From sequence record NZ_CP096760.1: a DNA stretch of 64,000 nucleotides; one strand, written 5' to 3'. Position numbers and translations under genes: made by a program. Source of the stretch: a plasmid. A model generated the notes under the pieces. The model was not told where the DNA came from. It saw only the letters and a list, made by a program, of their open reading frames with translations, and searched no databases. Positions 42,261 to 62,700 of this stretch are shown here, piece by piece (positions within the stretch are counted from its first letter, which is position 1; each line of letters begins with the position of its first letter).

Positions 42261-42276
42261 TTTTTATTTGGGGCTA

Positions 42277-42316: not shown

Positions 42317-42340
42317 TAATTGAGTTGCCCTACTCAGAGA

Positions 42341-43701: not shown

Positions 43702-44018
43702 ATCGAAAGCAACGTAAACGTAAATTACAGCGAGCAAAGGCTCATCAGGCACAGTCAAAAGGACACCTTGAAAAGGCTCCATTAAGTCTAAAAGATTGCC
43801 AACAAATCATTAAAGAAATGAATACCAAATATGGCTCTAATTCTCAAACCCTTCCTAAAGAGTTTGGAAATGAACGCATTGCTAAGGCTGCTAATTCAGC
43901 AGGTCACTTAGGAAATCGCCTCCCTCTCACTAGGAGACTTACTTGGTATTACGCAGCTTATTTAAGACTTTTAACTTTCTGGAGACTTATTTGTGGCCGT
44001 TCTACATCAGTTAAATAA
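43698..44018 (+). CDS. hypothetical basic protein
   Basis: 106-aa ORF. Confidence 0.45.
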   Translation: MNRKQRKRKLQRAKAHQAQSKGHLEKAPLSLKDCQQIIKEMNTKYGSNSQTLPKEFGNERIAKAANSAGHLGNRLPLTRRLTWYYAAYLRLLTFWRLICGRSTSVK

Positions 44019-44472: not shown

Positions 44473-44525
44473 AAGGCGTTCAATTGAACGCCTTTATTAA
44501 TGCCCTGATCATACAGGGCTTTTTA
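44473..44525 (+). terminator. Tandem intrinsic terminators
   Basis: AAGGCGTTCAATTGAACGCCTTT and GCCCTGATCATACAGGGCTTTTT. Confidence 0.6.
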
Positions 44526-44752
44526 TGATTATGATTGAAGAAACAAAACGAGCTTTGTATTACCAACCAACGTACTTAAGAAAGCTTAAATCAAAAAGAG
44601 GACATTTCTTATGCTTAAATCTAAAGTAATAAGTTGGCAGCCTTAATTTATCAGTTCTTCGGGTAAGTCATGCCGCCTTTGCTTTTTCCAATCAACTTAA
44701 CAATTAGCTGACTAAAATAACTTAACGTTTTGCTAATTAAGAAATGAATTGA

Positions 44753-45535
44753 TTGGATATGAAAATTTTATTGATGAATGACTCAAGTGTGACAACCGTT
44801 AGAAAAACACATGAGGCTTTAAAAGGTAGAAAACTCATTGCAAGTGGCATGTTTTCAGGTGTCTTTGAAAGCGGAAATCCCAATACCGTTCTTAAATTGA
44901 CTGTCTGTCCAGCCACTTATTACATGCTTAACGACGAAGCAATTAAGATTGATGACATTCACTCACCTAAATTAATCAAAAACTATGGCCAAGTTGGTGA
45001 ATACCTGGTTGGCAAGAATGTGAAAGAAACAAACCTCACAAAACCAAATAAAAAATTAGTTCCATTATTTCTGTTTGAAGTAGAGCGCCTTGAGAAGATT
45101 TCAAAAGGTCCTAATCGCAGCCTTGCCTTAAACCTTACATATGAATTGCGCCGCCGTCTTGCAGGGTTAGAGCACGGTATAAGTGTTCGAGGTGCCACAG
45201 CTAAAATTCTCATTGAAATGGCAAATCAGCTTCCTCAACTGAAGGACGTTCCTACCCTTCTACCTTACTTCGAAAAACTAAATAATTTCGTAGGCAGTTA
45301 CGGTGATGCGTTTTATGACATCCATGCGGCAAATCTAATGCAACGTAGTGATGGAACCATTGTTTTTTCAGATCCAGTTGGCTCAATTGATATTTACACT
45401 TCCGGGCATGGCGAATTTAAACCGATCGTTAGCCTTTCGGACGTGAAGTGGACCGACGTCAAAGACCGACACCGTAAAGAGTTCCAAGCGCTTATTAATA
45501 AAATCAAACCCAATCAGAAAGCATTGAATGCCTAA
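44753..45535 (+). CDS. hypothetical protein with protein-kinase/APH-like motifs
   Basis: Gly-rich GMFSGVFESG then VLKL; catalytic-loop-like DIHAANLM; SDP in the DFG position. Confidence 0.4.
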   Translation: MDMKILLMNDSSVTTVRKTHEALKGRKLIASGMFSGVFESGNPNTVLKLTVCPATYYMLNDEAIKIDDIHSPKLIKNYGQVGEYLVGKNVKETNLTKPNKKLVPLFLFEVERLEKISKGPNRSLALNLTYELRRRLAGLEHGISVRGATAKILIEMANQLPQLKDVPTLLPYFEKLNNFVGSYGDAFYDIHAANLMQRSDGTIVFSDPVGSIDIYTSGHGEFKPIVSLSDVKWTDVKDRHRKEFQALINKIKPNQKALNA

Positions 45536-45546
45536 TTTTGATTGCA

Positions 45547-45573
45547 ATAATAAGTAAGCACTTATTTATAATT
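45547..45573 (+). promoter_or_regulatory. Palindromic promoter-like element
   Basis: AATAATAAGTAAGCACTTATTTATAAT. Confidence 0.4.
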
Positions 45574-45588
45574 AATGGGTATTACGTT

Positions 45589-46032
45589 ATGATTATTGCT
45601 GAAAGTATTTTTAGCCGTATTGGCAATCTGCGCAAAGTTATGTCAGACCATCAAATCGCCTGCCTTCTATCAGGAACCAAAGGTGTTGAGAGTGAGCATT
45701 ACAAAGACTTGATTATCAAAGTCGATGACATCGTAGCCAAATGCCCTCTTACCTATCAAACAGACGGCCAAGGCGACAACGCAATATGCCAAATGCATTA
45801 CTTCAAGGGAGATAGCGACGTTTACATCGTTGAATTAGACGTTGCTGGTCCACCTCATACTCAAGCATATGGAGTAATCAGACTTAATGGCGGTTATCCG
45901 GAGCTTGGATATATCGATTTAGATGAATTGATCAAATATGGGTTTGAGCTTGATTTGTATTACGCCCAACAGACAGTTGGCGAAGTTATGAGAAAACTTA
46001 CCTATGAGCAAACACGACGATACCGTAAATGA
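45589..46032 (+). CDS. hypothetical protein
   Basis: Start moved to ATG 45589 so the promoter element stays outside the ORF. Confidence 0.5.
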   Translation: MIIAESIFSRIGNLRKVMSDHQIACLLSGTKGVESEHYKDLIIKVDDIVAKCPLTYQTDGQGDNAICQMHYFKGDSDVYIVELDVAGPPHTQAYGVIRLNGGYPELGYIDLDELIKYGFELDLYYAQQTVGEVMRKLTYEQTRRYRK

Positions 46033-46044
46033 AGGAGAAAAATA

Positions 46045-46557
46045 ATGGCGCGTTACTTTGACATGTTTAGCAAAGAGATTTCTAAGGAAGAATATGAAAA
46101 GTTACGTGCCCATTTTGAGGAAGTTTTTAGAAAGCATGCCGAAAACGAACCAGACACTTTGCCGCTAAACATGTTTTCGGTGCGCGAATTTCAAAATGAA
46201 AACCTATGTGTGCAATTAATATGGCTCGGCGAAATCAGCGACAAGATAGTTTCCAGCCACTACAAGTCACAATATCCTATCTTTAAAATTGCGATCTTAA
46301 ATAAACGGAATGATGACCGATGGTATGAAGAACCTTTATCCAAGACGCACAACCGGCGGTCATCAGCCGATGCGGAATACGAAGACATCCTCTTGAAATA
46401 CTCCAAATGTTATTACGATGAAGAAGGTAACTTTACCTATAGTGAGGACAATCTTTCCAAGTGCATTCATGAACAAATTACGGTCGAGGGACTAATAGAA
46501 GAAAATCTCCCGTCAATTACCTTCAAACCGAAGACCAATTTCGATTCAGTGTGGTAA
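46045..46557 (+). CDS. hypothetical protein
   Basis: 170-aa ORF. Confidence 0.5.
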   Translation: MARYFDMFSKEISKEEYEKLRAHFEEVFRKHAENEPDTLPLNMFSVREFQNENLCVQLIWLGEISDKIVSSHYKSQYPIFKIAILNKRNDDRWYEEPLSKTHNRRSSADAEYEDILLKYSKCYYDEEGNFTYSEDNLSKCIHEQITVEGLIEENLPSITFKPKTNFDSVW

Positions 46558-46689
46558 CACACTGAATCTTATTATTTTACTTTACCTACAACATCGCCAT
46601 CATTTCGCTTCTTATCCACACGGCGCTCAATAAACTACATACAGCAGCAAGAAAACTGCAATAACTTCAACTAATAAAGGTATGTAAGT

Positions 46690-47553
46690 ATGAACGCAAA
46701 AGCTACTAATCAAGTAAAAGATGATGAATTACTTATATCTAATCTTTTTGATCAACTTGATATTGATGAATCAGAACTCGACATGGCTTTAGAGCCAACA
46801 GCCGAATCTGCTGCTGTTCAAGATGAAAAGCTAATCGATGAAGAGTTGCATGATGTTGAGTTATTAGACGACTTAAATAACACTGAACTTGAAACACTCA
46901 TTAATGATGAAGAATTAGATTTAAGCCTTGAAGCAGAAGAAGTTGAAAATTCTGTTGTTTCAGATAAGAAAGTTACAGAGCCTGAGAAGTTAAAAACTGA
47001 GAATGTAACTGAAAAACAAGTACCTAAATCTACACAGCAACGTGTAACGCACTACAACTCTAAGAAGTCGGAAGTTTTACTAGACCGTCTAGGCGGTAGT
47101 GCAGACATGATTCTTCTTGAAGCGAGTGATATTGATTTACCAAATGACAAGCTTAAAGAAAAACAAGAAAACCTGTTACGTATCCTGAACAACCAACCGA
47201 CGGTAATTGGTACACGAGGTAATGTTGAGACAGTTCAAAAGAAAGTAGCTGAGAAGGTCATTATCTTGTTCACCTATTTCAAGAACGGTGGAAACTTAAA
47301 TAAGGTCATGAGAATCGCATTTGAGACGATTATTACAGATGGTTATATTACAACTGGTAAAGGTGGCAATCTATATAACAACCTGTTGAATGCACATTAC
47401 TCAGAAGGTACAGCGCGAGCGCAGGCGGGACAGATGCTCCAAATGTTCCCCCTATTGAAAATTGCAACAAAAGAAGGAAATAAGCTAATTCCAAATGAGC
47501 AGTCGCTAATTTTAGCCAAGATGAAAGCTGATCTCTTTCCAAGTGAAAAGTAA
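46690..47553 (+). CDS. hypothetical protein, acidic N-terminal half
   Basis: 287-aa ORF. Confidence 0.5.
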   Translation: MNAKATNQVKDDELLISNLFDQLDIDESELDMALEPTAESAAVQDEKLIDEELHDVELLDDLNNTELETLINDEELDLSLEAEEVENSVVSDKKVTEPEKLKTENVTEKQVPKSTQQRVTHYNSKKSEVLLDRLGGSADMILLEASDIDLPNDKLKEKQENLLRILNNQPTVIGTRGNVETVQKKVAEKVIILFTYFKNGGNLNKVMRIAFETIITDGYITTGKGGNLYNNLLNAHYSEGTARAQAGQMLQMFPLLKIATKEGNKLIPNEQSLILAKMKADLFPSEK

Positions 47554-47570
47554 TAGAAAAAAGCGGTAAA

Positions 47571-47599
47571 AAGGGAGTGTCAAACTCCCTTTATTTTTG
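47571..47599 (+). terminator. Intrinsic terminator
   Basis: AGGGAGT-GTCAA-ACTCCCT then TTATTTTTG. Confidence 0.6.
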
Positions 47600-47727
47600 C
47601 CTATGTCAAAAACACTATTTTCCTGCTTCTAATTTGCGCGCTAATTACGTTAAAAAAATTTTTATAAAGAAACACTCACGCTGAAAATAAAATTAAATCT
47701 AGCGCTTTACAACGCAAAATAGCACTT

Positions 47728-47825
47728 CTTATATATAAGCGCTTACTTATAAATATTGTTATACTCTTTTAAAAATATAAAACAGTAGATAGAATCCATA
47801 TTATTAGTTATCGCTTACTATATAT
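47728..47825 (+). promoter_or_regulatory. Two palindromic promoter-like elements just upstream of the IS insertion
   Basis: CTTATATATAAGCGCTTACTTATAAAT and ATTATTAGTTATCGCTTACTATATAT. Confidence 0.4.
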
Positions 47826-47861
47826 TTCCAGATAATTACATTTACTATTCACTCAACACTG

Positions 47862-48899
47862 GCTTTGTTGCACAAACCTAGCCTATAAGGTTTATTCAGT
47901 CCTATATTTCAAAATGAATAAACCTACTCCTAAAACTTATCGTACAACCAACTGGTCTTCCTATAATCGCGCTCTCATTAATCGGGGTAACATTTCCATT
48001 TGGTTTGATCCAAACACTCAGTGGTATGCACAACCACAAGACAAGCAAGGTCGAAATCAAACTTACTCCGATAAGGCTATTCAATGCTGTTTAATGATCA
48101 AATCTTTATTTAGACTCTCTTTACGCATGGTCACAGGTTTTGTTCAAAGTCTGATTAAACTTTGTGGATTAAATTGGACCGCACCAGATTACAGTACGCT
48201 TTGTCGAAGACAAAAACATATTAATATTGCGATTAGCTATCAAAAAAGTAGTGATGGGCTACATCTACTCGTCGACTCAACTGGCTTAAAGTTTCTAGGT
48301 GAAGGCGAGTGGAAACGTAAGAAACATGAACCTGAATATCGTTGCCAATGGCGTAAGCTTCATATTGGCATCGATGCTGAAACCTTGCAAATACGTGCAG
48401 TACAGCTTACTATAAATAATGTGAGCGATTCGCAAGTACTCGGTGATTTACTTGATCAAATCCCGTTGAATGAGCAGATTGATTCGGTCTATACCGATGG
48501 TGCTTATGACACGAAGCACTGCAGACAAGTCATTCTAGATCGAGATGCACATGCGGTCATTCCGCCAAGAAAAAATGCAAAACCATGGAAAGATCAGAAA
48601 TTGAGATCTTTAGAGCGGAATGAGTTACTGAAAACAGTTAAACGTTTAGGAAGAACGCTTTGGAAAAAATGGGCAGGCTATCATCGTCGAAGTTTAGTTG
48701 AAACCAAGATGCATTGCATCAAACTATTGGGGGATAAACTCAGTGCGAGAAACTTTCAGAGCCAAGTGAATGAGATTCATGCTCGTGTGGCAGTATTAAA
48801 TAAATTTACAGAATTAGGTCGTCCTCATACCCAAGTTGTCACTTGAATTCTGTTCAAATGAGCAGAGTGTTGTCTTTTAAATCTTTGTGCAACAAAGCC
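47862..48899 (+). mobile_element. IS5-family (IS903-group) insertion sequence, intact
   Basis: Terminal inverted repeats GGCTTTGTTGCACAAA / TTTGTGCAACAAAGCC. Single 310-aa transposase. No 9-bp direct repeat at the flanks. Confidence 0.8.
47914..48846 (+). CDS. IS5-family transposase
   Basis: Full-length DDE transposase inside the inverted repeats. Confidence 0.85.
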   Translation: MNKPTPKTYRTTNWSSYNRALINRGNISIWFDPNTQWYAQPQDKQGRNQTYSDKAIQCCLMIKSLFRLSLRMVTGFVQSLIKLCGLNWTAPDYSTLCRRQKHINIAISYQKSSDGLHLLVDSTGLKFLGEGEWKRKKHEPEYRCQWRKLHIGIDAETLQIRAVQLTINNVSDSQVLGDLLDQIPLNEQIDSVYTDGAYDTKHCRQVILDRDAHAVIPPRKNAKPWKDQKLRSLERNELLKTVKRLGRTLWKKWAGYHRRSLVETKMHCIKLLGDKLSARNFQSQVNEIHARVAVLNKFTELGRPHTQVVT

Positions 48900-49380
48900 G
48901 CTAACGACTAAAGTTTCACCGGCTTTAGGCTGACCAATGTCTAACAACCCCATATAAGCAGTAAATCCTGGCATTCCCAAAATATCCAATGCCCAAGATG
49001 GATGTTCAGGTTGCATACCTAAGCTTTGACATACAGTCCCATTAGAAATTGCGTAGCCCTGCCAGCCATTTCCTGAAAGAACCCACTCGCCTTCTTTGAA
49101 TTTTGGGTTTTTAGAGGCCACTACTTGACTGACTCTTCCACCGACCATCACTTCGCCAATTTCAACCGGTGCTGCATATGAGGGAGCATCACTCATGCGA
49201 CCACACATATAAGGATCGAGTGACAAGTAAATGGTCTTTAACAATATCTCGCCTTATTTAAGTTCATTGAGTTCAACTTGCTCAATACGAAAATCGCTGT
49301 GTTTTGGCTCACCGAGTGGCCGTTTAGCTAAAACGATGCGTTGGTTAATAACTGTTTCCACTCGCATAACTCCATGTTTT
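48900..49380 (-). pseudogene. NADPH-dependent oxidoreductase (CurA/YncB-like) N-terminal remnant, frameshifted and truncated by the IS
   Basis: MRVETVINQRIVLAKRPLGEP... reaches a stop, then continues in another frame (LYLSLDPYMCGRM...) up to the IS boundary. Confidence 0.55.
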
Positions 49381-49503
49381 GTATAAAAGTATTTCTATTG
49401 ATAATTGAGACTGTTGATTAAAACGTCTTTACATCAATTGTAGATGAGTTATAATAAAAAAAATACGACTGGTCTATTTTTTACAATAGAGTAAATAATT
49501 AAT

Positions 49504-50112
49504 ATGAAGCCTAATCCTATTAAAAAGTCTGAAGCGAAGCGCTTACACATTCTTAACACTAGTTCAGACCTGATTTTGCATAAAGGTTTTACCGGTGTAG
49601 GATTACAGGAAATTTTACAGAACTGTGAGATCCCCAAAGGCTCGTTTTATCATTACTTCCAATCCAAGGAAGCTTTCGGATGTGAATTGGTACAGCATTA
49701 TGTAGACAATTACCAAGTCCGTTTAAATGATGTATGGCGTAGTGATAAATCCCCTTATCAAAAGCTAATTGAGTATTTTAATTTATGGATAGAAGATCCT
49801 GTAACACAGTGTGGTTGGGCGGATAGCTGTTTAATTGTGAAACTTGCCGCAGAAGTTGCCGATCTATCTGAAGATATGCGCTCGATTATGTCCGCTGGCG
49901 TCGATGATGTAATCGAACGTATTGCTGGTTTAATTGATTTGGGAAAACAGGATCAGTCTATCCAGGCAGATACTGAGGCCTCGACGTTGGCACAAGTACT
50001 TTACCAAATGTGGTTAGGTGCAGCATTACTGAGTAAATTGCAAAAAGATAAAACACCATTACATCAAGCTCTGAGAGCAACTAAATTTCTATTAAAAAGT
50101 GAAGATTCATAA
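49504..50112 (+). CDS. TetR-family transcriptional regulator
   Basis: N-terminal TetR HTH. Confidence 0.8.
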   Translation: MKPNPIKKSEAKRLHILNTSSDLILHKGFTGVGLQEILQNCEIPKGSFYHYFQSKEAFGCELVQHYVDNYQVRLNDVWRSDKSPYQKLIEYFNLWIEDPVTQCGWADSCLIVKLAAEVADLSEDMRSIMSAGVDDVIERIAGLIDLGKQDQSIQADTEASTLAQVLYQMWLGAALLSKLQKDKTPLHQALRATKFLLKSEDS

Positions 50113-50530
50113 AAATTAGATTAAATATCAATTACATAATTAATGACAGCAGCCCAATGATTACTTATTAATGTGTTGCTATTAGATCAATTTACAATCC
50201 ATGAGTATAGCGCACAATGAATTCTCCTTCTAAAGCCCTCATGTCTCGTATTTTAGTCGGATATTTAGGCTTATATCCCACACTATTACTGGTACTTACT
50301 TTATTAAAGCCAATTACTCAGCATCAAAGTTTCCCGATGATGGTGTTGATTGAAGTCATAGTATTAGTGCCAGTAACGCAACTGATTTCTTTCCCACTGG
50401 CAGGTTGGCTCATTACACAGCTAAAAAATTTTAAGAATTTGTTTTAAGAAGAATTTATGCTGGCAACAGCAATCCTAAGTCCTTATTTTGCCAACCACAA
50501 CGGTTGGCAAAATAACTCACTTAGTCAATA

Positions 50531-51658
50531 CTAATCTGCGTAAGCTGGATAATCAATATAGCCTTTTTCTGTCCCACCATACATAGTGCTTGCATCTACT
50601 GGATTCAATGGCCAGCCATTGGCGATGCGATCGGGTAAATCTGGATTCGCAATAAATGGGCGTCCAAATGCAATTAAATCGGCCAGTCCTGCCTCTAAAA
50701 TTCGAGTCCCTCTTTCTGCCGTATATCGACCTGCATAAATAATCCGACCACTGAAAGTGTCTCTGACATCTCTACGAAAATCATGAGGAAGTTCTGGTGC
50801 ATTATCCCAATCAGCTTCTGCAATCGATAAATAGGCAATCCCAACTTCTTCAAGTATTTTTATGGCTTCAATATAAGTCACATGTGGATCATCTTCAACC
50901 AACCCTATGTAAACACGATCTTCCTCTGTACTTTCAAATAGCGGGGCAAAACGCACTCCTAAACGATCTGCACCAACCACCTCAGCAACTGCCTCTACTA
51001 CTTCACGTAAAAAACGCAAACGATTGTTTAGTGATCCACCATATTCATCTTCACGGTGGTTACTATGTGCAGAGATAAATTGATTCACCAAATAACCATT
51101 TGCACAATGAATTTCAACTCCATCAAAACCAGCAGCCAAGGCATTGCGTGCTGCTTGAGCATAGAGTTGCACTAATTCTTTAACTTCTGCATTGCTTAAA
51201 GCACGTGGCATTGAAGGATCAGCCAAGGTCCCAGCATTAGGCCCGGTCTCAATAAACACTTTAACATTACTATCAGCCCTAATAGCCGAGGGTGCGACCG
51301 GTGATGCATGATTAGGTTGCAAAGATGTATGTGAAACACGCCCAACATGCCAAAGTTGTGCAAAAATAATGCCTCCTTTAGCATGCACTGCTTCAGTCAC
51401 TTTACGCCATCCAGCAATCTGTTCAGGGCTGTAAATACCGGGAGTCCAAGCATAGCCTTGACCACGTGGCTCGATTTGCGTACCTTCGGTGACCATAAAT
51501 CCTGCCCCGGCACGCTGTTGATAATAGGTTGCCATCAGTTCATTTGGAATATTCCCTGGCTGAGTACTGCGCGACCGCGTTAATGGTGGCAATACAATAC
51601 GGTTTCGCAAAACATAAGGGCCTAAGCTTAAGTTTTGAAAAAGTATGCTGTCTTTCAT
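50531..51658 (-). CDS. Old-yellow-enzyme NADH:flavin oxidoreductase (NemA-like)
   Basis: OYE TIM-barrel motifs. Confidence 0.85.
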   Translation of the reverse strand: MKDSILFQNLSLGPYVLRNRIVLPPLTRSRSTQPGNIPNELMATYYQQRAGAGFMVTEGTQIEPRGQGYAWTPGIYSPEQIAGWRKVTEAVHAKGGIIFAQLWHVGRVSHTSLQPNHASPVAPSAIRADSNVKVFIETGPNAGTLADPSMPRALSNAEVKELVQLYAQAARNALAAGFDGVEIHCANGYLVNQFISAHSNHREDEYGGSLNNRLRFLREVVEAVAEVVGADRLGVRFAPLFESTEEDRVYIGLVEDDPHVTYIEAIKILEEVGIAYLSIAEADWDNAPELPHDFRRDVRDTFSGRIIYAGRYTAERGTRILEAGLADLIAFGRPFIANPDLPDRIANGWPLNPVDASTMYGGTEKGYIDYPAYAD

Positions 51659-51858
51659 TTCATTGTATCCAAGTAATCATGACTTAATTGATCTAAATTA
51701 AAAAATACCCTTCCTTCCTGTATATAGAAAAATAAAGGAAAGAAAGCTATTAACTCAGACCCTCCACCATTAAGTGAGGGTTATTTTGCTTATTGCACCC
51801 GTTGCTCAGAGTCAGAAGTTATTCACTGCTAAGCACCACAACAGACGCTAGCTACTCT

Positions 51859-52536
51859 TTATTTCAACAATTGAAGTAATGCTGTAGCAGTTGCAGCAGA
51901 AGAGGCTGGATTTTGTCCAGTAACCAGCAAGCCATCTACTTGAACATGTACTTGCCAATCATCTACTTTAGAATAATGACCACCATTTTCTTTAAGCATG
52001 TCTTCGACTAAAAATGGTACAATTTCAGTCAAGCCTACAGCAGCCTCCTCAGTATTGCTAAAACCAGTGACTAATTTACCGCTGACTAAAGGCGCTCCAT
52101 TACTCGCTTTCACATGACGAAGAACACCTGGGGCATGACACACTGCTGCAACAGGTTTGCCAGACTGAATCGCCTGTTCAATCAGAGAAATTGAAATCGG
52201 ATCTTCTGCTAAATCCCACAATGGACCATGCCCGCCTGGATAAAACACCGCATCATAATCAGCTACAGAAATTTCGCTAAGTTTATGCGTCTGTGCCAAT
52301 GCTTGCATTGCAGTTGGATCAGCTTCAAAACGATGAGTGGCTTCAGTTTGCGCATCGGCTAAATTACTTTTAGGATCTAGTGGTGGCTGCCCACCTTGAG
52401 GCGACGCCAGCGTAACTTCAGCACCAGAGTCAATAAAGATGTAATACGGTGCAGCAAGTTCTTCTAGCCAGAAACCTGTTTTCTTACCAGTATTGCCAAG
52501 TTGAACATGTGAGGTTAAAACGACTAAAATTTTCAT
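51859..52536 (-). CDS. DJ-1/PfpI-family protein
   Basis: Start set at MKILVVLTSH, which has a GGAG RBS; conserved Cys in AAVCHAPG. Confidence 0.75.
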   Translation of the reverse strand: MKILVVLTSHVQLGNTGKKTGFWLEELAAPYYIFIDSGAEVTLASPQGGQPPLDPKSNLADAQTEATHRFEADPTAMQALAQTHKLSEISVADYDAVFYPGGHGPLWDLAEDPISISLIEQAIQSGKPVAAVCHAPGVLRHVKASNGAPLVSGKLVTGFSNTEEAAVGLTEIVPFLVEDMLKENGGHYSKVDDWQVHVQVDGLLVTGQNPASSAATATALLQLLK

Positions 52537-52620
52537 GTTATTTCTCCGATAATTTTCATGATTGAGGAGCATTGTTGCATGATCACTTGCTGTGTGGCGT
52601 GAGCATGCCAGATAGCTTAT

Positions 52621-53778
52621 TTAGATGCTCGTCGCAAGAATTTGGCGACTGATCTCTAATGAAACATTTTTGTGTTCGCCTAGCCGTGTCAGATTGTGTG
52701 ATTTAAGTTGCGTAATGATGATCTCAATATCTGTCTCCCCCAGTCCATAATCGCTAAGACGAGTCGGCAATCCAAGTTGCTCAAAGAAGGCTCGAGTACG
52801 AGCAATAGCCGTATCAATACGTTGTTCTTCATCACCTTCGACAATCTGCCAGACACGAGCTGCATACTGTAGTAATTTTTCTCGCTTCTCTTGACGACGC
52901 ACTTGTAGATTGGCCGGCAACACAATGGCCAAGGTACGAGCATGATCAATACCATGTAAAGCCGTGAGCTCATGTCCAATCAAATGGGTTGACCAATCTT
53001 GTGGTACACCAGCTCCAATCAGCCCATTCAGTGCCATGCTAGCAGACCACATCAAATTCGCACGCGTGTCATAATCTGCTGAATCTTCCAAGATTTTCGG
53101 TCCAATCTCAATCAGAGTTTGCAATAGACCTTCGGCAAAACGATCTTGTACTTGTGCATTCACAGGGTAAGTTAAGTACTGTTCAATGACATGAACAAAT
53201 GCATCCACCACGCCATTAGCCAACTGGCGCGTCGGCAAGCTAAAGCTTTTATTCGGATCTAGTACGGAAAATTGCGGAAAAACATAGGGACTGCTAAATG
53301 ACAATTTGGCTTGGGTCGATTTTCTGGTTACTACACCACCGCTATTCATTTCTGAACCAGTTGCCGGAAGGGTGAGTACACTCGCAAAAGGCAAAGCTTG
53401 AGTAATTTTAGTACCATGGGTTTCTAAAATCTCCCATGTATCCCCTGTATAATTGACTGCTGCTGCAATAAATTTAGTACCATCAATTACCGATCCACCA
53501 CCGACAGCCATCAAGAAATCAATCTTTTGTTCTCGAATCAGCTCTACAGCTTTCATGAGGGTTTCATAACTCGGATTCGGCTCAATTCCGCCAAATTCAT
53601 GAATTTCTCTTGCACCTAATGCTTCACGCACTTCAGCTAAAGTACCATTCTTACGTGCACTTTCACCACCAAATAACATTAACACTTTTGCTTCTGTAGG
53701 CACATAGTCATTGATTTCAGCTATTGTATCGCCACCAAAAATAATGCGGGTCGGATTATAAAAGTTAAAATTCAGCAT
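52621..53778 (-). CDS. Iron-containing (group III) alcohol dehydrogenase
   Basis: Fe-ADH fold motifs GGGSVIDGTK and His-rich metal site. Confidence 0.85.
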   Translation of the reverse strand: MLNFNFYNPTRIIFGGDTIAEINDYVPTEAKVLMLFGGESARKNGTLAEVREALGAREIHEFGGIEPNPSYETLMKAVELIREQKIDFLMAVGGGSVIDGTKFIAAAVNYTGDTWEILETHGTKITQALPFASVLTLPATGSEMNSGGVVTRKSTQAKLSFSSPYVFPQFSVLDPNKSFSLPTRQLANGVVDAFVHVIEQYLTYPVNAQVQDRFAEGLLQTLIEIGPKILEDSADYDTRANLMWSASMALNGLIGAGVPQDWSTHLIGHELTALHGIDHARTLAIVLPANLQVRRQEKREKLLQYAARVWQIVEGDEEQRIDTAIARTRAFFEQLGLPTRLSDYGLGETDIEIIITQLKSHNLTRLGEHKNVSLEISRQILATSI

Positions 53779-54374
53779 ATTTTTATCCTAGGATGATCAG
53801 CTAATTGATTTGAAAAGCCACCGTTATTCATCAAATAAACTTTAAAAAATTGGACAATACTGTGGCTTTTGCCTACACCATGTGCTAACTATACATAAAA
53901 ATAGACCAGTCGTCTATTTTTTTAAAAAAATTATTTCAGCTTGCCAACTTGAGTGATGCTTAAACAAATTCAGGCTTGTTCTATACCACTTTTATTATTG
54001 ATGTATTTTCACGAGCGATTGTTGGATGGAAGATATCAACACGTATGACTATTGACATGGTCGTGAACGCATTGGCTGAAACAGTGAATGGCTCATAGAA
54101 AATAGCAATGATTAAATATTTTAAAAGCAGATTGGCAAGGTTTAGCAGATGTACAAATGCAGCGCTAAATTAGATAGATTGGTTCAATATAAGGCATGTG
54201 GATTCATTCGTTTATTTACCCTGTTTTGGATATTGACCCATGTAAACGATGAGATTAAGCCAATAAATAAAGTAGCCCAACTTGAATAAAAAGCCTCTGA
54301 CAAACATCATAGGGTTGAAGTGCTGCCTTACATTCAAAATTTCAGACAGCACCCTCATACATTTAAGCATAGGT

Positions 54375-54677
54375 TTAAGCTGGTAGTTTACTCGCCAAAA
54401 CATCTACTTTTTCAATAGATGGTGGCTCTGAAAATAGCTCTTCGGCCTGAGCCATCAACGCAGCTGCAACCTTGCCAGATAAATGCGCTTGGCGACCCGC
54501 CTCATCAGGAAATGCATCAAAAATACCAAATGTTGTAGGACCAAGACGAAGGCCAAACCACGCAACTGTCGCAGGTTCTTCCATTACAATAGGTAAACCG
54601 GCTTTAAGAAAAGCTTCCACTTCGTCTTCTTTACCCGGTTTAGCTTCAAGACGGACATATAAAGCTGTTTTAAGCAT
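54375..54677 (-). CDS. ABM-family (antibiotic biosynthesis monooxygenase-like) protein
   Basis: 100-aa ferredoxin-like fold family. Confidence 0.6.
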   Translation of the reverse strand: MLKTALYVRLEAKPGKEDEVEAFLKAGLPIVMEEPATVAWFGLRLGPTTFGIFDAFPDEAGRQAHLSGKVAAALMAQAEELFSEPPSIEKVDVLASKLPA

Positions 54678-55000
54678 GACTAAAACTCCATAATTGATTA
54701 GAATTCAAACTGAATCTGACATTGCTAATGTATGCATGTCAGAAAGTTTTGTTGTATAAAAGTTAAAAAAATTTCCCATAGCTGAGCCAAAATTTAGATT
54801 TTTATTTCGACATAATGCTATGAATTTATTCAAGTTAATATCATTAACATTTGAATCAAAAATCAAGATATGAGATGATTAAATTCAATCTTAGTTATAT
54901 AAGGATCAATTGACTCTACCTTAGATTTATAAGCTGACCTCTTCATCTGGAGATTATATTGCTCAAGAAGCATTCAAGAACAACATGTATATCCTCATAT

Positions 55001-55846
55001 CTATGAAAGTTTTTTTGCTAGGAATTTGCTGTGAAACTCTATATGTTTCTCTATAAAGCTCGCAATGAAGTAATAGCTATGGTCATACCCTTCTCTTAGG
55101 TTAAGTGTAAGAGGATATTCTTGTTCCAAACAAATATCACTAAGCAGCTTAGGTCTTAACTGTTCTTCAAGAAAATCATCAGCTGTTCCCTGATCGACTA
55201 AAATAGGTAAATGAACTTCCGCGTTTTTGATTAATTCAATCGCATCATAGCTTTTCCATAAAGTTTCGTTTTCACCTAGGTAGTGTGTGAAAGCCTTTTT
55301 CCCCCAAGGTACTTGGCTAGGTGCAACAATTGGTGCAAAAGCAGAAATACTTTTATACAGCTCAGGGTTTTTTAACCCAATGACTAATGCACCATGACCA
55401 CCCATGCTATGCCCCATAATGCTTTGGACTTGGTTGGTCGGAAAATTCAGGTCAATCAGATTTCTGAGCTCTTCCACAATATAATCATACATTTTGAAAT
55501 GCTGTGACCAGGGTGCTTGTGTTGCATTCACATAGAATCCTGCACCTTGGCCTAAATCATAATCTGCATGATCTGGTACATCTTCTCCACGTGGGCTGGT
55601 ATCTGGTGCAACAATAATGACTTTATGTTCAGCCGCATACTTTTGTGCTCCGGCTTTAGTAATAAAGTTCTGTTCGTTGCAAGTCAGCCCTGATAACCAA
55701 TATAAAACTGGCAACCGCTCATCTTTGTCATGAGGTGGCAGATATATTGAGAATTTCATTGAACAGTTTAATGCTGTTGACTGATGGCAATACACTTCTT
55801 GCGATCCACCAAAAGAAGCATGTTTCTCAATTATTTCCATAATCAA
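55001..55846 (-). CDS. frmB: S-formylglutathione hydrolase (esterase D)
   Basis: GHSMGGHGAL serine hydrolase motif and overall FrmB/FghA similarity. Confidence 0.85.
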   Translation of the reverse strand: MIMEIIEKHASFGGSQEVYCHQSTALNCSMKFSIYLPPHDKDERLPVLYWLSGLTCNEQNFITKAGAQKYAAEHKVIIVAPDTSPRGEDVPDHADYDLGQGAGFYVNATQAPWSQHFKMYDYIVEELRNLIDLNFPTNQVQSIMGHSMGGHGALVIGLKNPELYKSISAFAPIVAPSQVPWGKKAFTHYLGENETLWKSYDAIELIKNAEVHLPILVDQGTADDFLEEQLRPKLLSDICLEQEYPLTLNLREGYDHSYYFIASFIEKHIEFHSKFLAKKLS

Positions 55847-56068
55847 TTACCTATGTTGAGCAAGACTTCATGAGAAATCGAGTAAACAAAGAGTCTGTCA
55901 TTCTCCACAGAGAATAGTGATTAAGATTTAAAATGTAGGCAGGTTTGTTGAACCTATACACGATGCCTACACAGATAGATGGGTTTTACAGATAATGTGC
56001 CGTTTTAGAGGATTCCATGCATGTCATTCATGATGCACATGCATGGAAAACTATAAGGTCTGACGGAA

Positions 56069-57202
<1,134 letters not shown>

Positions 57203-57478
57203 CTATTTTAAATATGATTTTAGAATCTTGGCGATTTCAGCCAATTCTTCTTTTCGTTGTTGTTCTGTGGTTTCACCTGATACTAAAGTGTCCTTTAAAT
57301 GAACCTCTAACATCTCATTCATTAGACCATTAATAGCACCACGCACAGAGCATATTTGTTGCAGAATCGCACCACATTCCACATTGTCTTCTAGCGCTTT
57401 TTCAATCGCTTGTGTCTGACCTTTGATCTTTCTGACGCGTAGAAGAATCTTTTTTTTGTCTTCAACCTGATTAGGCAT
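57203..57478 (-). CDS. frmR: FrmR/RcnR-family formaldehyde-responsive repressor
   Basis: 91-aa CsoR-like protein upstream of frmA. Confidence 0.8.
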   Translation of the reverse strand: MPNQVEDKKKILLRVRKIKGQTQAIEKALEDNVECGAILQQICSVRGAINGLMNEMLEVHLKDTLVSGETTEQQRKEELAEIAKILKSYLK

Positions 57479-57668
57479 CAGACCTCCTTATTTGCTAGCA
57501 TTGATACTATAGTACCCCATAGTATAAGAAAAGCAATATTTTTTATAAATCGAAAATCAAAAAGACCTTTAGCGAAAATTTTCTATCCCTGTTTTTAGTT
57601 TTTTTAAATTAACATCGTAGAGCTGATGATGTGTGCTGAAATAACAGAACACTTTCACTTAGGATATT

Positions 57669-58538
57669 CTAGGCAACCAACTTATAAAAGTCCTCTGCCA
57701 TTTGATTTGGTGTCTTAAAATCCAGTCCTTTCTGAATTCTCTGCTGATTATAAAATAGCTCTATGTATTTTGTAATATCTGCTTTGGCTTCTTCCCTCGT
57801 TTTATAATTGCGATGATGCACCAATTCGTTCTTTAATATTCCCCAGAAACTTTCAATTGGAGCATTATCATAACAGTCTCCTTTCTTACTCATCGAACCA
57901 TGAAATCCATATTTTTCAATCATGTTACGATATTCATGACTGCAATATTGACTGCCTCTGTCTGAGTGAACAATTAATCCTTGTGGTGGTTTGCGATTCC
58001 TAATTGCCATATTCAGTGCATTGCAGACAAGTTGGGCTGTCATACGTTCACTTAAGCTATAACCAACCACTTGTTTGGTACAAAGGTCTTTTAAAGCCGC
58101 TAGATACAGCCATCCTTCAGCTGTCCATATGTATGTAATGTCACTTACCCACGCAATGTTGGGAGTAGTCGCTGTAAAGTTTTGCTCTAACAAATTGTTG
58201 TAAACAGAACGACTGTGATCGCTATTTGTTGTCCTTTTAAAACGTTTATGACGTTTACAATACAGTTGATTTAGCCTTTTTATACAACGGACTGCATACG
58301 CGCTAATTTGAGTGCCTTGTGACTGTAAGTACTTCGTTAAGCGAATATGACCATAACTTTCTTTAGTTTCTTGATGGGCTATTTTGACAAAGATTGTCTG
58401 TTGGTTTCTTTGAATAGCTCGTTTACTTAAGCCTTGCTTTACCCAATCATAAAACCTTGATATTGAAACTTTAAGCAGTCTAGCCATCATCGTTGTTGGG
58501 TAGGTGTTTTTGTACTCTTTCATGTAAGCGTACCTCAC
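57669..58538 (-). CDS. IS3 transposase OrfB (DDE integrase core)
   Basis: rve-type catalytic core. Confidence 0.8.
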   Translation of the reverse strand: MRYAYMKEYKNTYPTTMMARLLKVSISRFYDWVKQGLSKRAIQRNQQTIFVKIAHQETKESYGHIRLTKYLQSQGTQISAYAVRCIKRLNQLYCKRHKRFKRTTNSDHSRSVYNNLLEQNFTATTPNIAWVSDITYIWTAEGWLYLAALKDLCTKQVVGYSLSERMTAQLVCNALNMAIRNRKPPQGLIVHSDRGSQYCSHEYRNMIEKYGFHGSMSKKGDCYDNAPIESFWGILKNELVHHRNYKTREEAKADITKYIELFYNQQRIQKGLDFKTPNQMAEDFYKLVA

Positions 58539-58833
58539 TGATTTTCCTTGGCAAAGTACGCTGCTGCTTTTTTAGAAACTCTTTCTCCATTTCGGCAGTT
58601 TTGAGTTGTTGTTTGAGCTTTTTATTTTCTTCGAGCAGAGCAACGAGGTCAGGTGAATATTGTTGTGTTCCCTCTAATGTTCCTGCTTTTGCTTTATTAT
58701 ACCAATTCGACAGCGTTTGCATGGAAACACCAAGTTGTCGTGCTGTTTCCGAGACATTTCCTTGATTTAACTCAATAGCCTTGATTGCTTCAGCTTTAAA
58801 TTCTGCCGTATAAATCTTTTGTTTTTTGCTCAT
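58480..58833 (-). CDS. IS3 transposase OrfA (HTH)
   Basis: HTH plus leucine-zipper-like region; ends in the frameshift window. Confidence 0.8.
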   Translation of the reverse strand: MSKKQKIYTAEFKAEAIKAIELNQGNVSETARQLGVSMQTLSNWYNKAKAGTLEGTQQYSPDLVALLEENKKLKQQLKTAEMEKEFLKKQQRTLPRKISEVRLHERVQKHLPNNDDG

Positions 58834-58925
58834 GGTAAACTCCTGATGAGTATGTTTAGCTTACCAAGTTAAAGTCTCCGTTTTTGTCAGCACACATCAC
58901 ATTCAGAAGGTTACTTATAATTAAA

Positions 58926-59387
58926 ATGGATTTCTCCATACATACTGATCATACAGTCACGCTTGAATTATTAAAAACCTACCTTCGAATGTTCATCAAA
59001 AAACTTCATGCACCGAATGATAAAGTTCCACCCATTGTCGGTTTTGTTTGGAAATTAGAATACTCAGTATTAAAAAGTTACCACTATCATTTCCTATTTT
59101 TCATGGATGCGAATACTTTTACAGAAGATAAAAACTTTGCCTATAAACTTGGTGAATTATGGCAAAAAATAACCTTAAAAAAAGGAATCTATCAAAGCTT
59201 CAATCATGAAGAGCAAGTACGTAAAAATCTTGCTATTGGTATACTCACTCATGATGATCAAGAAAAAATTGACTCTCTAAATAAGATGATTTATCACATA
59301 ACCAAAACAGAGCAGTTCATTCTTGAAAGAAGCCAAATTAATCAACGAACATTTGGCTACAGCACCCGCAAGTATGCAACAAGGTAA
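58926..59387 (+). CDS. hypothetical protein
   Basis: The ORF-track start 58884 lies inside the IS terminal repeat, so the start was moved to the internal Met. Confidence 0.4.
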   Translation: MDFSIHTDHTVTLELLKTYLRMFIKKLHAPNDKVPPIVGFVWKLEYSVLKSYHYHFLFFMDANTFTEDKNFAYKLGELWQKITLKKGIYQSFNHEEQVRKNLAIGILTHDDQEKIDSLNKMIYHITKTEQFILERSQINQRTFGYSTRKYATR

Positions 59388-59634
59388 GTTGAATACTTTA
59401 TAAAGATTTAGCTAGATGTTTCTTTAATTCTGTTCTTTTCTATTCATTCGACACATAAGGTCACGAATTACGTAAACCCTATATAAGTTTATTTTTTAAA
59501 CAGTTGAATACCTTATTTCATACATTAATTTACAGCGTGCCGTTTCATCCTAAGGCTCTAATACAAGTGTTTTTTAATTCTTGGCAGCCTTGCTAGGAGT
59601 CTGTTTAATGTTGAACTAGAAAGAGGAAATCCGC

Positions 59635-60798
59635 ATGCGTGCTCTTACCTATCATGGTGCTAGGGATGTACGAGTTGAATCTGTTCCAGATCCAGTGATT
59701 CAGGAACCAGATGACGTTATTTTAAGGGTGACAGCCACCGCCATCTGTGGCTCAGATCTGCATTTATACCGGGGAAAAATCCCGGCCACTGAAGACGGTG
59801 ATATTTTCGGCCATGAATTTATGGGAATTGTAGAAGAAGTCGGCCCAGAAGTAACCGAAGTCAAAAAAGGTGATCGGGTAATTATTCCCTTTGTGATTGC
59901 ATGCGGTCACTGTTTTTTCTGTGAACATGAACTCATGGCTGCCTGTGAAAATACCAATACCGGCCGTGGTGCAATTCTCAATAAAAAACAGATCCCACCA
60001 GGGGCAGCTTTATTTGGCTTTAGCCATTTGTATGGTGGTATACCGGGTGGTCAAGCTGAATATGTGCGGATCCCCAAGGGCAATGTCGGACCATTTAAAG
60101 TGCCAGGCTCCCTGCCTGATGAAAAAGTATTATTCCTGACCGATATTCTACCAACCGCCTGGCAAGCAGTAAACAATGCCCAAGTTGGTCGAGGTTCCAG
60201 TGTGGCGATTTATGGTGCTGGCCCAGTCGGTCTGCTGGCTGCTGCCTGTGCGCGGATGCTCGGTGCCGAGCAGATTTTTATGGTCGATCACCATCCTTAT
60301 CGTCTGCGTTTCGCACATCAAACCTATGGAGTGATTCCGGTCAATTTTGATGAAGTCGATGCCGCTGAATTTATCATTCAAAATACCACGGGTTATCGTG
60401 GAGTCGATGCCGTCATTGATGCGGTCGGTTTTGAAGCCAAAGGCAGCATGCTGGAAACCGTAATGACTAACCTGAAATTAGAAGGTTCGAGTGGTTCAGC
60501 GTTAAGACAATGTATTGCAGCGGTCCGCCGCGGCGGTGTGGTGAGTGTACCTGGAGTTTATGCCGGTCCAATTCATGGCTTCCTGTTTGGTGATGCCTTT
60601 GACAAAGGTTTAACCTTTAAAATGGGACAAACTCATGTGCATAATTACTTGCCGCAGTTGCTAGAACATATTGAAAATGGAGATCTGTCTCCAGATCTGA
60701 TCATTACCCATCGCATGAAACTGGAAGATGCTGCGGAAGGTTACCGTATTTTTGATAAAAAAGAAGAAGACTGTCGTAAAGTGATTCTGACGCCATAA
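59635..60798 (+). CDS. fdhA: Zinc-dependent dehydrogenase, glutathione-independent formaldehyde dehydrogenase-like
   Basis: [30 protein letters not shown]; similar along its length to FdhA-type enzymes. Confidence 0.7.
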
Positions 60799-60811
60799 AT
60801 ATGATTAAATG

Positions 60812-60841
60812 AAAGCGCCGTCAGGCGCTTTTTTATTTTTT
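60812..60841 (+). terminator. Intrinsic terminator
   Basis: AAGCGCC-GTCA-GGCGCTT then a T-run. Confidence 0.65.
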
Positions 60842-60878
60842 ATCATCATTTTATCAATCCTCTTTTTCTTGTTTTTAA

Positions 60879-61926
60879 GGGCTTTGTTGCACAAAGATTT
60901 GAAATGCAAAGCGCCCCTAATTGAGCCAAATTTAAGGCGTAACTTGGGTAAGTGGTCGACCTAATTCCGTAAATCTGTTAAGGACTGCTACACGTGCATG
61001 GATCTCATTCACTTGGCTATCAAAACTCCTTGCACTGAGTTTATCCCCTAATAATTTAATGCAGTTCATCTTAGTTTCAACCAAACTTCGCCGATGATAG
61101 CCTGACCATTTTTTCCATAGTGTCCTGCCTAAACGCTTAACTGTTCGAAGTAATTCATTTCGCTCTAGCGAGCTACTCTTTGTATCTTTCCATGGTTTCG
61201 CATTTTTTCTAGGTGGAATCACCGCATGCGCTTGCCGATCTGCAATGACCTGACGGCATTGCTTGGTGTCATAAGCTCCATCGGTATAAACAGAGTCAAT
61301 CCTCTCATCTTGTGGAATCTGATTAAGTAAATCACCAAGCACCTGTGAATTACTGACATTATTGGTTGTAAGCTGAACTGCTCGTATTTGTAGGGTTTTA
61401 GAATCTATGCCAATATGAAGTTTACGCCATTGGCGACGATATTCAGGTCCATGTTTCTTGCGTTTCCATTCGCTCTCACCTAGAAACTTCATGCCTGTAG
61501 AGTCCATGAGTAGATGCAGCCCATCGCTACTTTTTTGGTAGCTGATTACAATATCAATATGCTTTTGTCTTCTACAAAGCGTGGTGTACGAATATCACTG
61601 ATATTCGGGGCTGCTCATCCGCAAAGTTTAATCAGACTTTGCAAAAAGCCAGTAACCATACGTAAAGTCAGACGGAATAAGGATTTAATCATTAAGCAGC
61701 ATTCGATGGCTGCGTCGGAGTATGTTTGATTTCGCCCTTGTTTGCCTTTTGATGGAGCATACCATTGCGTAGCAGGATCAAACCAAATGGCAATATTTCT
61801 GCGACTCATGAGTGCTCGGTTATATGCTGGCCAATTGGTTGTGCGGTAGATTTTCTGTGTAGGCTTCTTCATTTGAAAATTATATCGCTGAAAAAGCCGT
61901 TACAGATAGGTTTGTGCAACAAAGCC
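60879..61926 (-). mobile_element. IS5-family (IS903-group) element, second copy, degenerate
   Basis: Same terminal repeats as the first copy. Transposase about 80% identical to copy 1 but broken. Inverted orientation relative to copy 1. No flanking direct repeat. Confidence 0.75.
60932..61872 (-). pseudogene. IS5-family transposase, disrupted (in-frame TGA after ...LIKLCG plus indel)
   Basis: Two ORF fragments, 61615..61872 and 60932..61507, collinear with the copy-1 transposase. Confidence 0.7.
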
Positions 61927-62108
61927 CATCGAGTGCTAAATTGCTTGCATTACTTGCAATGGCATCTGCCAAACGCCCTCTTCAATATAATTATACTCCC
62001 ATATTACAAGCTTTATATCTATCTAGTTATCTACATTTCTATATTCCTATATTACTACATAACAATATTGAAAGTTACTTATAAAACAATATAATATCCT
62101 AACTATAT

Positions 62109-62184
62109 TGCGTAGTAGCTCAGTAGGTAGAGCAGCGGACTGTTAATCCGTTGGTCACTGGTTCGAACCCAGTCTACGCAGCCA
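62109..62184 (+). tRNA. tRNA-Asn: tRNA-Asn (anticodon GUU)
   Basis: Cloverleaf: acceptor TGCGTAG/CTACGCA, D-arm GCTC...GAGC, anticodon stem GCGGA/TCCGT with loop CTGTTAA, T-arm ACTGG-TTCGAAC-CCAGT, encoded CCA. Confidence 0.85.
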
Positions 62185-62467: not shown

Positions 62468-62700
62468 TTAACAATATTAATGGCTTATAATCTATGTAGA
62501 TTTCTATCTATATTTCTATATTTCTACATAAATTTGTAATTGTTGATGCAAATTCACCGTTTGCACGTTTTTAAAATAGAAACGGCTATTTTGCATTTTG
62601 AAACGATTGCATTGCTTTTCGAGTAGTAAGCGTTTATATTCTCAATAGTAAAGTATTTTTATACATTTCTATTTATCACAGGCAGAATAGGTGCAGCGAA

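Follow-up and report, generated by a model that had tools for sequence, protein, structure and literature searches.

The stretch of DNA analysed here, 64,000 nucleotides of the plasmid record NZ_CP096760.1 (hereafter, the window), is part of an Acinetobacter baumannii phage-plasmid of the pABTJ2 type (R3-T3/GR24, rep_cluster_718), as judged from its replicon and backbone. Within the window, two inverted insertion sequence (IS) copies of the IS903 group bracket 11,980 bp of cargo, which carries genes assigned by homology to aldehyde detoxification. Alignments with related plasmids indicate that this cargo occupies a slot with fixed boundaries and variable content, and that the IS junctions around it differ in ancestry. 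We consider it probable that ~12 kb from a p3ABAYE/pDETAB13-type (R3-T7/GR13) plasmid replaced the earlier content of the slot through two IS-based steps.

The structure of the window is matched by three public Acinetobacter plasmid records, all typed as rep_cluster_718: NZ_CP033864.1, NZ_CP038645.1 (strain ACN21), and NZ_CP139838.1 (pB84_2). The first of these is 99.99% identical over window positions 36001-53348; it is a linear record that stops within the cargo. The window flanks also align with 93-100% identity to ZW85p2 and other pABTJ2-type members, in a collinear backbone that includes a Rep_3-type initiator gene, phage-type replication genes, and a tRNA-Asn gene. The first 47 kb of the window contain genes for the Rep initiator, DnaB, primase, ligase, DNA polymerase, a UvsX-like recombinase, and RNR, and PHROG matches were obtained for the first six of these products. 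On the pABTJ2-type backbone, annotation places capsid, HK97 gp10, and tape-measure genes outside the window, and the phage character is known here from genes. When the window was searched against a phage database, the only matches were to IS elements, to tRNAs, and to contigs mislabelled as phage. The family of pABTJ2, ZW85p2, and pAbNCIMB8209_134 (R3-T3, GR24) was previously described as plasmids with many phage-like genes, and a glutathione-dependent formaldehyde pathway has already been described for pAbNCIMB8209_134 (PMC4411360, PMC7392541, PMC9927589); PMC9927589 counted 45 members of R3-T3. The window differs from other pABTJ2-type members in the position of its aldehyde module, which lies between the last gene of the replication block (an open reading frame [ORF] of 287 aa at the left side of the slot; 46690-47553) and the tRNA-Asn gene, replacing a type I restriction-modification (R-M) system; other members carry aldehyde-type modules at other positions.

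The IS copy at the left of the cargo (47861..48899, plus strand, 1039 bp) is an intact ISAha2-type element of the IS5 family, IS903 group, with a 310-aa transposase (47914-48846) in which Pfam identified DDE_Tnp_1_5 and DDE_Tnp_1 domains. The copy at the right (60880..61926, minus strand, 1047 bp) is an IS17-type element of the same group; it carries the same transposase domains divided over two ORFs, and the fragments of 85 aa and 191 aa are 79% and 86% identical, respectively, to the ISAha2-type protein. Both copies have perfect 16-bp terminal inverted repeats, and all four termini read GGCTTTGTTGCACAAA. The repeats (16-18 bp, starting with GGCTTTGTTG in the IS903 group) and the size (~1.04-1.06 kb, with a single DDE transposase of ~307-310 aa) agree with this group assignment. 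At the DNA level, the two copies are 77-81% identical, in inverted orientation. The frameshift in the IS17-type copy corresponds to a patch at ~61579-61629, where 28 bp that include the palindrome CGAATATCAcTGATATTCG stand in place of 20 bp; this patch was absent from all six other IS17-type copies compared. Compared with annotated IS17 and with the donor copies, the IS17-type copy in the window shows 93-96% identity. The name ISAha2 is taken from the RefSeq annotation of copies in other plasmids that are 99.2% identical over the first ~120 bp, and the name IS17 from that of copies with 93-97% identity. In the first-pass annotation, the left copy was described as intact at 47862..48899 and the right copy as inverted, broken, and encoding a transposase of ~80% identity at 60879..61926; both descriptions hold, apart from the starts, which belong at 47861 (1 bp earlier) and 60880.

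We fetched nine relatives and used BLAST to place their flanks and IS elements, with the left flank defined as backbone up to window position 47860 and the right flank as backbone from 61927. Left-flank homology reaches 47860 in eight of the nine, and right-flank homology begins exactly at 61927 in six; it begins 41 bp later in XL380 and, weakly, ~110 bp later in pAbNCIMB8209_134, and the Ab1 plasmid (NZ_CP133718.1) has a deletion. The right flank (61927..62184, plus strand) includes the tRNA-Asn gene identified by ARAGORN (62109-62184), and from its first base it aligns with 93-99% identity to pZHOU-1, ZW85p2, p2LMG994, and plas2_LRB. The cargo had initially been placed next to a phage block; instead, it lies within the phage-plasmid backbone, which resumes on its far side.

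The DNA between the two flanks varies among the relatives. In ZW85p2, the left flank is followed by a 166-bp ISAha2 remnant, a type I R-M system, an IS, 770 bp with a 215-aa ORF, and the right flank; in pZHOU-1, the remnant and the 770 bp make up the slot. The slot of p2LMG994 holds the remnant, an R-M system with Abi, an IS, a mer operon, and an IS17-type copy, and that of pDETAB1 holds the remnant, an R-M system, an IS, genes for OmpA and a 4660-aa ESPR adhesin, and an IS17-type copy. In plas2_LRB, the left flank adjoins a 97-aa ORF, followed by an inverted R-M system, an inverted remnant, a redox module (OsmC, Trx, OYE, DsbA, LeuE), and an IS17-type copy; pV_JAB144 has the same arrangement without the redox module, and its inverted remnant directly adjoins the right flank. 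The left flank of XL380 continues into the start of the 97-aa ORF region and ~12 kb that include umuDC, and that of pAbNCIMB8209_134 into the left end of the remnant, cut by ISAba22. The Ab1 plasmid has the sole direct joint of left and right flanks that we found, with 6 bp of the left flank and 28 bp of the right flank lost; we rejected it as an empty site, as it is a secondary deletion and is uninformative on duplications.

The 166-bp remnant is an internally deleted ISAha2-type copy, with ends of 76 bp and 89 bp that are ~99% identical to the ISAha2-type copy in the window. It is complete in 32 plasmid records, nearly all with a single copy, and the remnant-bearing records that were inspected or that have slot flanks all belong to the pABTJ2-type family or to hybrids thereof. 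Based on these comparisons, the region between the replication block and the tRNA-Asn gene is a variable cargo slot with fixed boundaries anchored by IS903-group elements; the left anchor is an ISAha2 copy or the 166-bp remnant, and the right anchor is an IS17-type copy. As a separate observation, 26 copies of the remnant, which in pZHOU-1 is at positions 5004-5169 of the fetched stretch, are 100% identical despite 3-7% divergence of their flanks. Some plasmids have the remnant at the left boundary of the slot, and others have it in inverted orientation beside the R-M system. The relatives show two configurations, one with the remnant at the left flank and a forward R-M system, the other with the 97-aa ORF at the left flank, an inverted R-M system, and the remnant near the right flank. 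Replicative inversion by the remnant was considered as a link between them; it accounts for the left half of the rearrangement, not for the right half.

Probes of 241 bp centred on each of the four IS junctions were compared with 72,556 plasmid records. The left flank joined to the left end of a full-length ISAha2 copy occurs in only three records, all of the same lineage. At the identical base, 13 relatives have the remnant, pAbNCIMB8209_134 has its first 51 bp, cut by ISAba22, and ~7 records have the left flank ending there without an IS. The inner junction, of ISAha2 with a truncated oxidoreductase gene, was likewise limited to three same-lineage records, versus >200 records in which that gene is uninterrupted; this junction had no exact match in GTDB representative genomes or JGI metagenomes. 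The other half of the truncated gene was found nowhere, and the reciprocal junction was absent from the plasmid records searched (spanned by 0 of 210 matching records). Of the 32 records that contain the junction of the zinc-dependent alcohol dehydrogenase (Zn-ADH) gene with the IS17-type copy, 30 lie outside this lineage; they are plasmids of A. johnsonii, A. lwoffii (including permafrost), A. schindleri, A. ursingii, A. pittii, A. seifertii, and A. baumannii. We also saw this junction in the sequences of pDETAB13, an A. pittii plasmid, and p3DB053. Besides the lineage itself, the junction of the IS17-type copy with the right flank is present in seven phage-plasmid relatives with different cargo, and it was read directly in p2LMG994, pDETAB1, and plas2_LRB. 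Across these records, the alignments demonstrate a separate history for each of the four IS junctions. The first-pass annotation proposed that the IS elements had joined host cargo to the phage-plasmid; since both outer IS junctions are older than the cargo, the event would be a replacement of cargo in a long-standing slot and not a first joining.

These comparisons also bear on whether the structure could stem from two independent simple IS insertions into pre-existing cargo, or from an assembly artefact at the repeated IS copies. Acinetobacter plasmids are rich in IS903-group elements, and assembly can go wrong at repeats, but we regard such an origin as improbable in the extreme. The oxidoreductase gene is truncated, not just interrupted, with its other half absent, and relatives hold different DNA between the same junctions. 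Both left-hand junctions are 100% identical in three independent public assemblies (from an isolate from India, an isolate from Germany, and an FDA-ARGOS strain), and the right-hand junctions are likewise common to the two complete assemblies, the third record being linear and ending in the cargo. Furthermore, the IS copies are only ~80% identical and would not collapse in assembly. The concordant assemblies show that the junctions are real, and the related plasmids bear out the initial view that they belong to the class of IS-mediated deletion or cointegration, as opposed to simple insertion.

The cargo is collinear with regions of p3ABAYE (96.4% identical), pDETAB13 (98.8%), and the A. pittii plasmid NZ_CP069498.1 (98.4-99.5%), and the match extends from within the oxidoreductase gene through frmR and then again over the Zn-ADH gene and the IS17-type copy. 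These donor plasmids are classified as rep_cluster_639, p3ABAYE type (R3-T7/GR13). Gene content and order in the p3ABAYE/pDETAB13-type region agree with the cargo, down to the IS17-type copy that follows the Zn-ADH gene, and DNA identity is 96-99%. The region differs from the window in that its oxidoreductase gene is intact, with GST, PPC, and integrase genes ahead of it, and in the spacer between frmR and the Zn-ADH gene, where donor plasmids have IS6 elements and the window has an IS3-family element and a Gp2-like ORF. The intact oxidoreductase (~339 aa) is present in p3ABAYE, pDETAB13, and >200 other plasmids, and the aldehyde module as a whole is found on >200 Acinetobacter plasmids, chiefly of the p3ABAYE/pDETAB13 type. 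Because collinear versions with the intact gene reside on p3ABAYE-type plasmids, we identify the cargo as plasmid accessory DNA and not a chromosomal locus, contrary to its earlier description as host-type. Discrete accessory modules that recur on many Acinetobacter plasmids are also typical of pdif modules; however, the cargo in the window is bounded by IS ends and not by XerC/XerD sites. Searching the 64-kb window with the pattern TTTCGYATAA-N6-TTATGTTAA and up to three mismatches gave 0 matches, and pdif (XerC/XerD) sites were rejected as module boundaries.

Some of the cargo appears to have been exchanged recently. The window and FDAARGOS_560 differ from ACN21 and pB84_2 by ~4% in a 4.2-kb patch (51250-55500, from the 3' end of the old-yellow-enzyme gene to fghA); the difference is confined to this patch, and outside it the cargo is identical between the window and ACN21/pB84_2. 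This pattern marks the patch as an allele that was replaced recently, through homologous recombination with a different copy of the module. In XL380 (NZ_CP046537.1), the most divergent family member, a module of frmR, frmA, fghA, and an ABM-like gene that is 96.8% identical to that of the window lies ~1 kb to the right of the right flank (positions 23660-26969 of the fetched stretch), and no IS903-group homology was detected beside it. Aldehyde modules are also present elsewhere in pAbNCIMB8209_134 and the Ab1 plasmid (NZ_CP133718.1). The placements in these three plasmids indicate that aldehyde modules entered the pABTJ2-type family more than once, at different sites.

The bases that flank the two IS copies carry no sign of a target duplication. 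The 9-mers on the left and right of the ISAha2-type copy are CTCAACACT and GCTAACGAC, and those of the IS17-type copy are GTTTTTAAG and CATCGAGTG. In all pairings of the four flanks, direct or reverse complement, no pair matched at more than 5 of 9 bases; these pairings cover single insertion, composite insertion, inversion by recombination, and replicative inversion. This agrees with the initial report that neither copy, nor the pair taken as a unit, has a 9-bp repeat. A 9-bp duplication is expected for IS903-group elements, and its absence bears on the history of the copies and not on the identity of the elements. Each IS copy has one flank of phage-plasmid ancestry and another of donor-plasmid or novel ancestry, and this by itself explains the lack of duplications at both copies.

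By anatomy, the ISAha2-type copy, the cargo, and the IS17-type copy form a 14,066-bp unit with the outline of a composite transposon, since its outer ends are identical 16-mers in inverted orientation and the ISAha2 transposase is intact; based on these features, the unit is predicted to be formally capable of moving as a whole now. It is nevertheless very improbable that the unit entered the phage-plasmid by transposing intact, with subsequent loss of the target duplication. The identical outer repeats in the correct orientation and the intact transposase would fit this origin, but the 9-bp duplication is absent (CTCAACACT and CATCGAGTG, the outer flanks, agree at 1 of 9 positions), cargo-free relatives with other DNA in between have both outer junctions at the same base, and the 14,066-bp unit was found at no other location. 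Moreover, the inner IS17 junction pre-exists in donor plasmids and the inner ISAha2 junction does not.

The account that we favour as probable would begin with a slot that held, as in relatives, a type I R-M system plus other cargo. In one step, homologous recombination between a resident IS17-type element and the donor IS17-type copy just downstream of the Zn-ADH gene would have linked the Zn-ADH/IS17 junction to the IS17/backbone junction. In the other step, transposase would have made a joint between the inner end of a resident ISAha2 and a site within the donor NADP-dependent oxidoreductase gene, either through replicative transposition to a cointegrate that was later resolved by recombination between IS17 copies, or through intramolecular transposition and adjacent deletion within a cointegrate. 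Taken in either order, the steps would yield the left flank, ISAha2, and the truncated oxidoreductase gene at one end and the Zn-ADH gene, the IS17-type copy, and the right flank at the other, with no target duplications. We infer the two steps and their order from the junctions. The right joint is attributed to homologous recombination within IS17 because both junctions of that copy pre-exist on different replicon types; the left joint is attributed to transposase because its outer junction is old and its inner junction is unique, lies exactly at the IS end, and cuts a gene. A. pittii plasmid NZ_CP069498.1, in which both p3ABAYE-type and pABTJ2-type replicons were typed, has non-phage DNA adjoining the right boundary of the slot, where an inverted remnant precedes the right flank (fetched stretch 1-18497). 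This hybrid and the ongoing homologous exchange seen in the 51250-55500 patch lend support to a two-step mechanism. What the alignments establish is that the cargo came from plasmids, that the four junctions differ in ancestry, and that the two plasmid types have formed hybrids.

Several observations weigh against this account. A crossover inside the IS17-type copy could not be mapped in 50-bp bins when donor-type and resident copies were compared; IS17-type copies are mosaics that are alike in their outer 300 bp, and the copy in the window is near that of donor p3DB053 throughout. No sampled relative has a full-length ISAha2 at the left flank with different cargo, and in a recipient with only the remnant, which carries no transposase, the joint would require a transposase acting in trans or, alternatively, a double crossover. 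Between the end of the ISAha2-type copy and the first base homologous to the donor oxidoreductase gene lie three bases (GCT) for which neither step accounts. The donor IS17 copy itself lacks a target duplication, which points to a layered history.

An unlikely but not negligible alternative is a double homologous crossover with no transposition step, in which the donor already had ISAha2 in the oxidoreductase gene and IS17 after the Zn-ADH gene. The right side is clearly consistent with homologous recombination, the left outer junction is old, the 76-bp and 89-bp ends of the remnant are near-identical to ISAha2, and active homologous recombination is evident from the allelic replacement in the cargo. 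The required donor, however, is missing: 0 of the >200 plasmids that carry the oxidoreductase gene have ISAha2 in it, and neither junction of such an insertion occurs outside this lineage among the plasmid records or in GTDB representatives and JGI metagenomes.

Cointegrate formation and resolution by IS903, IS1, and IS26, together with adjacent deletion, are classical IS-mediated processes that produce structures resembling pseudo-compound transposons. Like these, the window has cargo between two related IS copies without target duplications, flanks of each IS that come from two replicons, and a gene truncated exactly at an IS end. Unlike these, its two IS copies are different IS903-group species (~80% identical) that share only their 16-bp ends, and, as judged from sequence, one joint best fits homologous recombination and the other transposase action. 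The structure is an ordinary IS-mediated mosaic of two well-known Acinetobacter plasmid families. No new mechanism is involved: cointegration and deletion mediated by IS elements, like homologous exchange, belong to the textbook repertoire, and public databases already contain identical sequences. What the comparison adds is a junction-by-junction record of how a phage-plasmid gained a plasmid accessory module via resident insertion sequences. A modestly interesting by-product is that a recurrently used cargo slot has been located in an A. baumannii plasmid family that is common in the clinic. Depending on the isolate, the slot holds genes for defence (type I R-M, Abi), mercury resistance, an adhesin, redox functions, or aldehyde detoxification. 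Defining this slot aids annotation and typing, and it aids in judging phage-plasmids as carriers of plasmid traits between hosts.

A broader reading, which we advance tentatively, is that the slot may be a dedicated cargo-exchange locus downstream of a phage promoter, with resident IS903-group elements, namely the single-copy ISAha2 remnant and an IS17-type copy at a fixed base, serving as homology docking sites for repeated swaps of modules (R-M/Abi, mer, adhesin, redox, and aldehyde detoxification) drawn from ordinary Acinetobacter plasmids. If this were true and if the element forms particles, such modules could travel by infection.

The backbone carries a repeated motif made up of a palindrome and TATAAT (approximately TTAGTAAGCGCTTACTATAAT). 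At least 14 copies were found (repeat families D1, D2, and D4), and most lie 40-110 bp ahead of plus-strand ORFs. The copies start at positions 2451, 4405, 14636, 16680, 24926, 30521, 30815, 35580, 38437, 42276, 42793, 45550, 47723, and 47798. The last copy is degenerate (47798..47826, plus strand) and lies 35 bp upstream of the ISAha2-type copy; the phage promoter element of the first-pass annotation is thus a real repeated motif. By its distribution, the set looks like candidate phage-specific promoters or operators for the replication block. In relatives pV_JAB144, XL380, and plas2_LRB, the motif is followed by the 97-aa ORF, and in the window the transposase gene of ISAha2 lies downstream of it in the same orientation; given this geometry, putative read-through from the motif into the ISAha2-type copy is plausible. 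A generic sigma-70 scan at the motif upstream of that copy gave nothing above chance.

The cargo begins, beside the ISAha2-type copy, with the 5' remnant of a gene for an NADP-dependent (MDR-type) oxidoreductase (48900..49244, minus strand), of which only the ADH_N_2 domain is left, consistent with the truncation initially noted at this boundary. A TetR/AcrR-family regulator (49504..50112, plus strand; Pfam TetR_N and TetR_C_13, and RefSeq) is encoded divergently from it. This is followed on the minus strand by genes for a NemA-like old-yellow-enzyme (OYE) alkene reductase (50531..51658; Pfam Oxidored_FMN, E = 1.5e-85, and annotation), a DJ-1/PfpI-family protein (51859..52572; Pfam DJ-1_PfpI and annotation), and an iron-containing alcohol dehydrogenase (Fe-ADH; 52621..53778; Pfam Fe-ADH and ADH_Fe_C). 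A small ORF (54375..54677, minus strand) is antibiotic-biosynthesis-monooxygenase (ABM)-like based on the RefSeq annotation of an identical gene, and it had no Pfam match at E <= 1e-5.

The frmR-frmA-fghA (frmB) operon (55001..57478, minus strand; Pfam and RefSeq names) consists of adjacent, co-oriented genes for a FrmR/CsoR-type repressor (FrmR, 57203-57478; Pfam Trns_repr_metal), a class III alcohol dehydrogenase (FrmA, 56069-57181; Pfam ADH_N and ADH_zinc_N), and S-formylglutathione hydrolase (FghA/FrmB, 55001-55846; Pfam Esterase). Toward the right end of the cargo, an ORF with a YagK/YfjJ C-terminal domain (58884..59387, plus strand; Pfam YagK_YfjJ_C, a weak match at E = 6e-6) is annotated as an inovirus-type Gp2 protein, and the FdhA-like Zn-ADH is encoded at 59635..60798 (plus strand; Pfam ADH_N and ADH_zinc_N). 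In some GenBank records, the Zn-ADH gene is named glutathione-dependent formaldehyde dehydrogenase. Pfam and RefSeq annotation recovered every gene type in the first-pass list for this segment (TetR, OYE, DJ-1, Fe-ADH, frmR-frmA-frmB, IS3, and an fdhA-like gene). By homology, the cargo is predicted to encode glutathione-dependent formaldehyde detoxification (FrmR, FrmA, FghA) and reductases for reactive electrophiles and aldehydes (OYE, DJ-1, Fe-ADH, Zn-ADH), under the control of TetR and FrmR.

An IS3-family element (57627..58899, minus strand) separates the frm operon from the Gp2-like ORF. It has orfA at 58480-58833 and orfB at 57669-58538 (Pfam HTH_Tnp_1 and rve) and imperfect inverted repeats of 34 nt, and no target duplication was found at its flanks (GCTGA on the left, CATTC on the right). 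Donor homology ends at 57549-57628 and picks up again at 59398. Given its position exactly at this break in synteny and its lack of a duplication, the element is probably the site of a further recombination joint, at which the frm and Zn-ADH modules meet.

A 26-nt inverted pair (49456-49481 and 53897-53922; 92% complementary, core ATAGACCAGTCGT) was also found in the cargo. One site lies in the divergent promoter region of the TetR and oxidoreductase genes, and the other lies upstream of the Fe-ADH, DJ-1, and OYE gene string; from these positions, the pair is likely a shared operator for the TetR regulator.

Further repeats were found in the backbone. Iteron-like direct repeats, (A/C)GGTACA(AAAAC/TTTTC)TCCG, occupy window positions 8-332 upstream of the Rep gene (470-1591). 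To the right of the slot, 8-bp tandem units of the TTCTATAT type are located at 62020-62060 and 62505-62529, on either side of the tRNA-Asn gene and a 90-aa ORF.

A second variable hotspot lies ~5 kb upstream of the slot (window 42260-42914), between an AAA ATPase ORF (41589-42260) and a 3'-5' exonuclease ORF (42914-43462), and the match between the window and ACN21 ends left of 42757. At this hotspot, ZW85p2 has IS1008 with tet(B) and sul2, pV_JAB144 has IS17 with an alkyl sulfatase gene, pAbNCIMB8209_134 has a clpK heat-resistance island flanked by ISAba13, and ACN21 and pB84_2 have an NmrA-family gene. In pB84_2, a phosphoethanolamine-lipid A transferase gene is located ~1.3 kb further upstream of the NmrA-family gene.

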